Positions 12,490 to 12,992 of a stretch of DNA of 30,539 nt are shown piece by piece. The DNA is from Actinomycetes bacterium (lineage in GTDB: Bacteria; Actinomycetota; Aquicultoria; CAJVYJ01). Positions within the stretch are counted from its first letter, which is position 1. Each line of letters opens with the position of its first letter. The stretch covers positions 1 to 30,539 of the forward strand of contig JAUVQW010000001.1 of the NCBI GenBank assembly GCA_030597945.1. Direction: 5' to 3'. The translations under genes and the position numbers were made by a program. The notes beneath the pieces were generated by a model, which searched no databases, was not told the origin of the DNA, and saw only the letters and a program-made list of their open reading frames with translations.

Positions 12490-12536
12490 TTGACAATCTC
12501 TATGTGGATATATAATATTATAGCTATAAGTCTTAT
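12490..12536 (+). promoter_or_regulatory. arsR promoter with overlapping palindromes (candidate autoregulatory operator)
   Basis: TTGACA at 12490-12495. The -10 is TATAAT at 12511 (15-nt spacer) or TAATAT at 12513 (17-nt spacer). Palindromes ATAATATTAT (12512-12521), TTATAGCTATAA (12518-12529) and ATAAG-T-CTTAT (12526-12536). SD GAGGTGA. Confidence 0.65.
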
Positions 12537-12550
12537 TGAGGTGATAATAT

Positions 12551-12838
12551 ATGCCAGGTTCGGAAGATTTCTTCCACGCGATGTCTGATAATACTAGACA
12601 AGAGATATTGGTCTTGTTGGATAAGAAGCCTAGATGTGTAAGAGATATAGCAAAAAAATTTTGTATCTCCCAGCCATCGATATCTAGACATCTGTCAGTA
12701 CTTAAAAATGCCGGCCTGGTAAGTGATGAGAGAAACGGCCAAAAGATTATTTATTCTCTAAATCAAGATTGGTTGCGCAGCTGTTGCGAGAATAACTTTG
12801 CCAGGTTTAGCTGTTGCAAAAGTCTTTTTAAATCTTAG
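12551..12838 (+). CDS. ArsR/SmtB family metalloregulator with C-terminal Cys pairs
   Basis: FHAMSDNTRQEIL, wHTH CVRDIA...SQPSISRHLSVLKNAGLV, ERNGQKIIYSL; C-terminus SCCENNFARFSCC. Confidence 0.92.
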   Translation: MPGSEDFFHAMSDNTRQEILVLLDKKPRCVRDIAKKFCISQPSISRHLSVLKNAGLVSDERNGQKIIYSLNQDWLRSCCENNFARFSCCKSLFKS

Positions 12839-12859
12839 ATTACTAAGGAGGTGACGTGG

Positions 12860-12922
12860 ATGAAAAGATATATGGTACCTCGAATAGCCCATTGTGAGTC
12901 TGGTTGCACTAGACCGTCCTGA
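12860..12922 (+). CDS. Unannotated 20-aa Cys-containing peptide MKRYMVPRIAHCESGCTRPS
   Basis: Near-perfect SD AAGGAGGTGA (12845-12854), 21 nt after the arsR stop, ATG at 12860, TGA at 12920-12922, terminator downstream. Below the ORF-track length cutoff. Confidence 0.6.
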   Translation: MKRYMVPRIAHCESGCTRPS

Positions 12923-12958
12923 GCACGACGCGAAACTACTCATCAGGTTAAAAAGTTA

Positions 12959-12992
12959 AGGCCCCCGAAATTGGAGGGTCTTTTCTTTTTTT
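12959..12992 (+). terminator. Intrinsic terminator of the arsR-peptide transcript
   Basis: Stem AGGCCC-CC / GG-(A)-GGGTCT with loop GAAATT, followed by TTTCTTTTTTT; lies between convergent genes. Confidence 0.8.

Follow-up and report, generated by a model that had tools for sequence, protein, structure and literature searches.

A Putative His/Cys Micropeptide Gene Conserved Downstream of arsR Ends within a 27-nt RNA Pseudoknot

The window analyzed here is a stretch of 30,539 nucleotides from an Actinomycetes bacterium (GenBank assembly GCA_030597945.1, contig JAUVQW010000001.1, positions 1 to 30,539; the assembly is 1.22 Mb and 82% complete), and the element under study is a small open reading frame (sORF) of 20 codons that follows arsR, the gene of an ArsR-family regulator. 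We propose that the sORF encodes a thiol- or metal-binding micropeptide that serves the SrnR-like ArsR as an effector or co-sensor, and that translation of the sORF melts a pseudoknot in which its stop codon lies. We put the probability of this statement as a whole at about 0.45. That the sORF is protein-coding and conserved is a separate claim, and the comparisons below make it very probable.

The sORF downstream of arsR as a gene

Taken by itself, a 20-codon reading frame is unremarkable, and its status as a gene rests on the conservation of a frame led by a Shine-Dalgarno (SD) sequence, together with a coding pattern of substitutions. A protein search with ArsR over 40 relatives returned orthologues in 16 genomes from several families of the class, at 51-58% identity with one at 46%. 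Together with the window these make 17 loci, and at all 17 an SD-led sORF of the same peptide type begins within ∼15-60 nt of the arsR stop codon (22 nt past it in the window). The SD-led frame that the original prediction, made from the letters of the window alone, placed after arsR is thereby borne out as real and conserved. Class peptides include MKRFMIPRMAHCDDGC..., MKKFMVPRVAHCTEGC, and VKRFMIPRTAHCDAGCNISS, and in family f7 L(L)RKRYMLRAVAHCCEGK.... A GGAGG-type SD with 5-7 matching bases, at the same spacing, and a start codon stand before 54 of 56 homologous sORFs.

The substitution pattern was read in 15 arsR loci that carry the downstream nucleotide motif described below; they were chosen by ArsR similarity and aligned on that motif, blind to the peptide. 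Pairwise differences at codon positions 1, 2, and 3 number 683, 845, and 1153, and the core Ala, His, Cys, and Gly codons vary at position 3 only. The ratio of nonsynonymous to synonymous differences (pN/pS) is 0.30 in frame and 0.95-1.33 in the other two frames among 50 unique family members, a set that was chosen by the peptide pattern and is therefore partly circular. In all these comparisons, related genomes are non-independent samples. The pN/pS values and the third-position bias rule out a pattern of conservation that is independent of frame.

Conservation at the RNA level only, as a structure in the 3′ untranslated region with an incidental frame, would account for the end of the sORF, where overlap with the conserved RNA motif forces the last two codons and the stop. 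It is a most improbable account of everything upstream. The 48 nt 5′ of the motif are third-position-biased, with Ala-His-Cys and Gly codons invariant at positions 1 and 2; the SD and start codon are kept, as stated above; and the peptide persists without the motif. In addition, none of 74 matches to the peptide pattern over all fetched loci falls in a viral locus, so the motif of phages occurs without this upstream sequence, and the sORF was found only in cellular genomes. The loci that keep the peptide without the pseudoknot include two of the class (L003 and L015), where an ordinary terminator replaces it, and about half of the sORF loci of the phylum; since the peptide persists there, we take it to be selected in its own right. 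A look-up of RNA data sets listed none for the window. For the homologous locus of the ORM2a genome (L090), one metatranscriptome run includes a single 618-nt contig, from a ∼90%-identical relative, that spans both sORF and pseudoknot (L090:4592-5191) and attests to presence in an RNA library only, with neither transcript ends nor level. We presume that the sORF is translated in vivo.

The family consensus is MKR[YF]M[IV]PR.AHC.[DE]GC. A nucleotide pattern that was built on R-x-A-H-C-x-[DE]-G-C and ignored the downstream RNA motif gave, over the phylum, 38 matches in 34 of 401 genomes, versus 3 for the reversed control (33 of 400 genomes when the unpublished genome G159, locus L304, is left out), and SD-led short ORFs are present at 26 of the 30 phylum loci that were fetched. 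The family occurs in at least seven other phyla. Carriers recognized through the downstream RNA motif include Thermodesulfobacteriota and other "delta" lineages, Omnitrophota, Spirochaetota, Nitrospiraceae, Saccharibacteria, and Auribacterota, as well as Acidimicrobiia and a betaproteobacterium. The peptides fall into subtypes, among them MKR[YF]M[IV]PR[VT]AHC.[DE]GC..., MRWMFPHATHCS[TA]CGS..., MQRKRFMLRRVAHCSCCSEGGCC..., ...RWLLRRVAHCKSGC..., and FPHATHCSTCGS, and a Cys-rich subfamily, HCSCCSEGGCC, has up to five Cys codons.

Six sORF peptides gave no family match in Pfam or NCBIfam, even at E values up to 10, and an exact look-up of eight family members in a collection of ∼15 billion proteins found none of them. 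Literature searches on a pseudoknot with a small ORF, on ArsR with a small protein, on H-type pseudoknots of phages, and on the motif string returned nothing relevant. As the original prediction had supposed, the peptide family is undescribed; the searchable literature and the databases (Pfam, NCBIfam, Rfam 15, and the protein collection) yielded no description of either the sORF or the pseudoknot.

In the window, arsR and the sORF make up a separate unit of two cistrons (Table 1), with a promoter that sits between the gene for 5-formyltetrahydrofolate cyclo-ligase and arsR, and the sORF is the second and last cistron. The ORF list of the window gives a 23-aa version of the peptide from GTG 12851 instead; ORF calls at the fetched loci are mechanical. 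We assign the start to ATG 12860 because its spacing from the SD is correct and because this start is used in the homologues. The next gene 3′ of the sORF is a convergent polysaccharide deacetylase gene that ends at 12991. A minus-strand terminator scan also called a site at 12978-12962, and the terminator between the convergent genes probably works in both directions.

A covarying pseudoknot at the stop codon

The original prediction overlooked a second conserved element, an H-type pseudoknot that holds the stop codon of the sORF. Its consensus is GTCCTGAGCA-N-GAC-NNN-AAA-NN-GCTC (12916-12941 in the window). Stem 1 comprises the pairs N0-N15, G1-C14, U2-A13, and C3-G12, and stem 2 comprises (U5-A27), G6-C26, A7-U25, G8-C24, C9-G23, and (A10-U22); C4 and A18-A20 are invariant, and the A-rich loop AAA lies at 12933-12935 in the window. 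Across 129 distinct copies, both partners vary in 9 of the 10 pairs, with pairing in 86.8% of cells, values reached by none of 500 shuffles and by no slid register. The G·U pairs show that the pseudoknot forms on the sORF strand. The window copy has a C·A mismatch in stem 2 that recurs in more than 10 other copies.

A scan of the class found the motif in 20 of 48 genomes and gave 0 matches for the reversed control. The window genome has a single true copy; two further matches, each to the first half of the motif and with 1 mismatch, fall within coding sequence (rpoB-like and RNase E/G-like) and were set aside as chance. Beyond the class, the motif was found in more than 119 DNA stretches in a scan of one genome per prokaryote species and in more than 118 viral stretches, both of which are lower bounds; the two public scans used a near-exact pattern, so invariance of the core is partly by construction, with variants recovered only within fetched loci. 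Carriers among cultured phages infect Synechococcus, Nostoc, Microcystis, Pelagibacter, Paracoccus, Mycobacterium, Arthrobacter, Streptomyces, Bacillus, Streptococcus, Lactobacillus, and Moorella, and crAss-like phages carry it as well. Among the phage matches listed, GenBank annotation under the motif consists of nothing beyond a few "hypothetical protein" calls.

Covariance models of Rfam 15 gave nothing relevant in the window region at E values up to 10, and no family falls on the motif in 12 other loci, where matches to a neighboring DUF2800 RNA and to pistol show that the search worked. A hammerhead, suggested by a GUC cleavage triplet and a CUGANGA core, was rejected on a misfit of the core and because most copies are without the other strands. 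A promoter, whether for sigma-54 or for a phage RNA polymerase, was ruled out by the compensatory changes, the G·U pairs, and the range of genes that follow the motif, among them one for a T7-like RNA polymerase. Neither the consensus of an integron attC site nor that of an oriT nick site is present. A 9-nt complementarity to the 5′ end of 16S rRNA was also noted and may be due to chance. As candidate roles for the pseudoknot we consider the control of RNA stability or processing, the coupling of translation, ligand binding as a small aptamer, and the docking of a conserved factor.

The last sORF codon of the window, TCC, and the TGA stop both lie within the motif, with the stop forming the 5′ end of stem 2. 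Among the homologous sORFs, 55 of 56 run into the motif in the same reading-frame register. The stop is either a UGA at motif bases 5-7 or a UAG that ends at base 1, and the distance from the His-Cys codons to the motif shifts by whole codons only (26, 29, or 38 nt). Where the UGA is mutated (UGG, CGA, CAG, and CUG were seen), the frame runs on for a few codons; selenocysteine at the UGA was ruled out by these replacements and the shortness of the extensions. Because the stop is inside the pseudoknot, a ribosome cannot complete the sORF without opening both stem 1 and the 5′ side of stem 2. Whether this 3′ element is folded is therefore coupled to translation of the sORF, which is the reverse of the arrangement in phages described below.

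Two variations at the 3′ end of the sORF were seen. In another family of the phylum (L320-L328), an sORF with the pattern MKR[FY]M[VL]PRVAHCSEGC.. has, in place of the pseudoknot, a GC-rich hairpin that lies at the stop codon or spans it, often with CCUGAAG after the hairpin. In family f7 (L010, L012, L013, L035, L038, and L043), the pseudoknot is tandem-duplicated with a 27-nt period directly after the sORF and 5′ of a LemA-like gene.

In phages and mobile elements, the pseudoknot is intergenic and has the same orientation as the genes. The gap from the end of the upstream stop codon to G1 at viral loci is 4 nt (1 case), 5 nt (1), 6 nt (23), 7 nt (9), or 8 nt (5), with an abrupt onset at 6 nt and no viral locus at 0-3 nt. 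A stop that ends 6 nt before base 1 ends 5 nt before stem 1, and in frameshift pseudoknots a distance of 5 nt from the A-site codon to the first pair places the structure at the mRNA entrance of the ribosome. Phages thus appear to set the motif as near to the stop codon as a terminating ribosome allows while the motif stays folded. The next gene mostly starts 13-40 nt downstream of the motif, in its own frame. Downstream genes are mixed (scaffold proteins, helicases, RNA polymerases, clamp loaders, and PhoH). Several Firmicute siphoviruses have the motif just 5′ of the scaffold and major capsid genes, and it is present in many copies per phage genome. Upstream of the motif, no recurring slippery heptamer was seen, and stop-codon usage in viral loci is ordinary, with TAA dominant and no bias.

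At four Desulfuromonadales loci (L072, L082, L094, and L123), the pseudoknot occurs without the sORF and lies ∼30 nt 5′ of genes for heavy-metal P-type ATPases or HMA-domain proteins, and at L094 it is downstream of a cytochrome c assembly gene. At L183:258-445, it abuts a DUF2800 RNA (RF02960, E 9e-30), and at L207:733-1002 a pistol ribozyme (RF02679, E 7e-5) lies ∼190 nt away. Pseudoknot copies flank phage tRNA genes at L182, L194, L209, L295, and L330 (mycobacteriophage Labelle). Prophages of Paenibacillus and Syntrophomonadaceae have a second conserved hairpin ∼15 nt past the pseudoknot and 5′ of the head scaffold gene (Table 1), in which the stem covaries (UCCG/CGGA, UUCG/CGAA, CUG/CAG) around the loop GUUCUGAGGAGU. 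A Selenomonadales locus (L135:4300-5700) has four pseudoknots in 1.3 kb; three lie ∼20-30 nt 5′ of the SD of small genes, and the fourth, which has no SD after it, shows the compensatory pair U9-A23.

Table 1. Coordinates of features at the arsR-sORF locus of the window and of related features at other loci
Feature	Coordinates	Strand	Description and basis
sORF	ATG 12860..TGA 12922 (TGA = 12920-12922)	+	20 codons and stop; encodes MKRYMVPRIAHCESGCTRPS
SD sequence AAGGAGGTGA	12845..12854	+	GGAGG core 8 nt 5′ of ATG 12860; read directly
arsR	12551..12838	+	95-aa ArsR/SmtB-family regulator; TAG stop 12836-12838; C-terminal CC-x8-CC
Sigma-70-like promoter	12490..12518	+	TTGACA-17 nt-TAATAT; consensus scan, 10/12 matches
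Candidate ArsR operator	12508..12530	.	AT-rich inverted-repeat box; overlaps and trails the -10 element; position and conservation
H-type pseudoknot, 27-28 nt	12915..12942	+	stem 1 (S1) 12915-12918/12927-12930; stem 2 (S2) 12920-12925/12937-12942
Intrinsic terminator	∼12950..12992	+	hairpin 12958-12982, flanking A/U pairing, U-run; -18.2 kcal/mol, z -3.55
Cys-rich protein copies	L315:1607-2044, L317:931-1359, L322:1666-2094, L323:1002-1430, L324:1584-2033		five genomes, other families of the phylum
Second prophage hairpin	L088:2339-2618, L105:3791-4070, L131:3771-4050, L100:2476-2755		

Regulator, gene neighborhood, and proposed function

ArsR matches PF01022, the winged-helix HTH_5 family (E 2.8e-16, 59.6 bits against a cut-off of 22). 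There are 26 solved ArsR-family relatives; the best is SrnR of Streptomyces griseus (PDB 7p6f, E 2.5e-14), and the alignment with SrnR extends into the C-terminal region where the Cys residues lie. In the nickel sensor that SrnR forms as one of two proteins, SrnR binds the DNA, and its small Ni-binding partner, SrnQ, resembles no known protein (PMC7055735). The CC-x8-CC segment at the ArsR C-terminus (12772-12835) is kept in most orthologues, with the first pair missing in L010 and L011 and the second in L015, and could be a metal, metalloid, or redox sensing site. A box like ATATTC..TAT.GG.ATAT stands at the same place 5′ of arsR in L004-L006, L009-L012, L014, and L016. To judge by its conserved position, this inverted-repeat box fits autoregulation by ArsR at a candidate operator.

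The original prediction described the peptide as the sole partner of ArsR, and within the class this stands, as the partner of the sORF there is always arsR (17/17). It does not extend to other lineages, where the sORF mostly stands alone as a mini-gene under a promoter of its own; a near-consensus TTGACA promoter lies 40-60 nt 5′ of most free-standing copies. Neighbors in other phyla include hldE (5), PALP/CysK-like genes (2), NifU, Fur, rhodanese, and pyridine-nucleotide-disulfide oxidoreductases. Same-strand upstream genes in the phylum include P-type ATPases (3), ArsR genes (2), and a 143-aa Cys-rich protein without a Pfam family (5 homologous copies). This Cys-rich protein (143-150 aa, with the motifs GCHICHGNE, LCPI, and GECEICY and no significant Pfam family) is encoded directly 5′ of the sORF on the same strand (Table 1) and is a possible second partner of the peptide. 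The recurring neighbors loosely share a metal/thiol theme, and a metal or thiol role, in line with the metal or metalloid ligand set raised in the original prediction, appears to fit both these neighbors (ArsR, P-type ATPases, and Cys-rich proteins) and the identity of SrnR as the closest solved regulator.

A hairpin and U-run follow within 110 nt of the sORF or pseudoknot at 25 of 48 loci, and an SD-led gene begins within 90 nt downstream at only 3 of the 48. The sORF is normally the last or only cistron of its transcript. The terminator after the sORF at many loci and the scarcity of close downstream genes argue that the peptide is probably an effector rather than a leader, which disfavors the sensing leader peptide that the original prediction had listed among its options.

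One specific form of leader is a Cys-sensing attenuator, in which stalling at Cys codons when Cys-tRNA is scarce refolds the RNA, with control of sulfur or metal genes as the result. Every member has Cys codons, up to the five of HCSCCSEGGCC, and some neighbors are sulfur-related (PALP/CysK-like, NifU, and rhodanese). However, the residues upstream of the Cys are kept through synonymous change, which is needless for a leader that counts codons; some members have only one or two Cys codons; and at most loci, the window included, a terminator or a convergent gene follows and no regulated gene does. We consider an attenuator very unlikely.

Also listed in the original prediction was a precursor of a ribosomally synthesized and post-translationally modified peptide (RiPP), here one that an enzyme encoded elsewhere in the genome would modify. 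The peptide is short, Cys-containing, and highly conserved, and its "leader-like" N-terminal half is conserved while its C-terminal half is more variable, all of which would suit a precursor. Against this, no recurrent maturase (radical SAM, YcaO, lanthionine synthetase, or MNIO) lies beside the sORF in ∼80 loci, with a single radical SAM neighbor among them; the neighbors in the window are a folate enzyme and a deacetylase; and the genome is small (1.2 Mb in the 82%-complete assembly). We consider a RiPP-like precursor very unlikely.

We favor an effector or co-sensor that binds a metal or a thiol-reactive species. Because the sORF is the second and last cistron after arsR, the peptide is the only non-regulator product under the repressor. 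In the proposed sequence of events, ArsR would sense a thiol-reactive metal, metalloid, or redox signal and leave its operator, derepressing the operon. The His/Cys(/Met) peptide would then be made and would bind either the thiophilic metal or metalloid that acted as inducer or a reactive sulfur or redox species. By analogy with SmtB–SmtA and SrnR–SrnQ, the bound peptide may act as a minimal buffer, as a chaperone, or as a co-sensor of ArsR. Translation of the sORF would briefly melt the 3′ pseudoknot, which may tune the stability or 3′ processing of the transcript. Metal or thiol binding by the peptide is itself a tentative assignment, and the functional link to ArsR and the role of the pseudoknot are likewise proposals.

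Several observations weigh against this proposal. Outside the class, the nearest neighbors of the sORF (31 downstream and 29 upstream scanned in other phyla) include one ArsR-family gene; as the sORF is seldom beside arsR there, ArsR is not an obligate partner of the peptide. The ligand set is minimal, with one His and two Cys among 20 residues, and the second Cys is not universal, being absent from HCCEGK in family f7 and from HCNDGH in one Acidimicrobiia copy. The most conserved part of the peptide is its N-terminal half (RYM.PR.AHC), which would also suit a function of the nascent chain. The constant frame and the alternative GC hairpin suggest that structure at the stop codon is itself selected, which a pure free-peptide model fails to explain. 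Finally, both translation of the peptide and its binding of metal are steps that we infer.

Some of these points would be expected of a self-contained, translation-gated device made up of promoter, SD, sORF, pseudoknot, and terminator. In such a device the peptide would act while still nascent, slowing or arresting the ribosome close to the stop codon, perhaps when a small molecule or metal is sensed; the fold of the pseudoknot, an undescribed and near-universal RNA module, is the output; and the free peptide has no function. The output could be stability, processing, factor binding, or a 3′-derived small RNA, and the module could block exonucleases, be a site of processing or self-cleavage, serve as a small aptamer, or dock a conserved host factor. 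The register of the stop within the pseudoknot is held despite whole-codon changes in spacing, phage genes stop 6 nt short of the motif and do not run into it, and one family substitutes a GC hairpin at the stop. The conservation peak lies 9-17 residues before the C-terminus, the part that would occupy the exit tunnel at termination, and many copies are bare units of promoter, sORF, pseudoknot, and terminator. On the other hand, the peptide is kept without any structure at the stop in two members of the class and several of the phylum, where an ordinary terminator lies some nucleotides downstream. The C-terminal residues, which would be near the peptidyl-transferase center, are variable, unlike those of known arrest peptides; most loci have no regulated downstream gene; and the proposed output is hypothetical. 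On balance we think such a device, the main rival to our proposal, unlikely, though to be taken seriously. If it were true, phages would keep the module outside the footprint of the terminating ribosome and cells would gate it by a His/Cys sORF, linking metal/thiol or translation status to the state of the RNA.

Relation to known systems and significance

The pairing of an ArsR/SmtB repressor with an adjacently encoded small Cys/His product is shared with the ArsR/CsoR-controlled metallothioneins (SmtB–SmtA, BmtA, and MymT). Metallothioneins have roughly 50 or more residues and many Cys, whereas the sORF peptide has 20 residues with two Cys and one His and matches no metallothionein profile. 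Its H-C-x-E-G-C is reminiscent of the H-E-G-C stretch of MymT. Unlike in SmtB–SmtA, the sORF is co-transcribed downstream of its regulator and not divergent from it, is widespread without an ArsR neighbor, and has its stop codon in a pseudoknot. The SrnR–SrnQ pair of S. griseus offers a second parallel in its combination of an SrnR-like ArsR with an adjacent small gene, an adjacency that holds at 17 of 17 loci here. SrnQ is ∼12 kDa; the 20-residue peptide is far smaller, and we claim no sequence relation between them. By analogy, the operon logic resembles SmtB–SmtA and SrnR–SrnQ, with a regulator and a putative small metal-binding product. The analogy leaves the RNA component unexplained, and it is possibly the more novel part.

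In size (27-34 nt) and H-type fold, the pseudoknot is like the frameshift pseudoknot of luteoviruses (beet western yellows virus, or BWYV, type) and the preQ1-I riboswitch. Topologically they share a short stem 1, a loop 1 of 1-2 nt in which a C is invariant, a stem 2 of 4-6 bp, a single nucleotide at the junction, and a loop 3 rich in A. As in recoding pseudoknots, the motif in phages lies 5-6 nt past the A-site codon, here the stop codon, within the 5-9 nt spacing of that class. It differs from them in having no slippery heptamer and no stop-codon bias toward readthrough, and from preQ1-I in having no Rfam match and gene contexts unrelated to queuosine.

Leader and arrest peptides such as trp-type attenuators, TnaC, and SecM likewise combine an SD-led short ORF, a conserved peptide, and a stop in an RNA structure that translation remodels. 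In contrast to these, most sORF loci are without a downstream regulated gene, and the sORF of the window is at the 3′ end of its operon. Known arrest peptides are lineage-restricted, whereas the sORF family spans many phyla, and its residues nearest the C-terminus are variable, in contrast to peptides of the TnaC and SecM type.

If the proposal is correct, a micropeptide family that extends over many bacterial phyla has been overlooked by every gene caller, and the peptide would be a new minimal kind of effector or co-sensor for ArsR-type sensors. The 27-nt pseudoknot would be among the smallest natural RNA motifs with solid covariation support, and its placement exactly 6 nt past stop codons would point to a design rule of phage operons that has not been described. 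With its stop codon inside the pseudoknot, the sORF would provide a simple, testable system for translational control of a 3′ RNA element.

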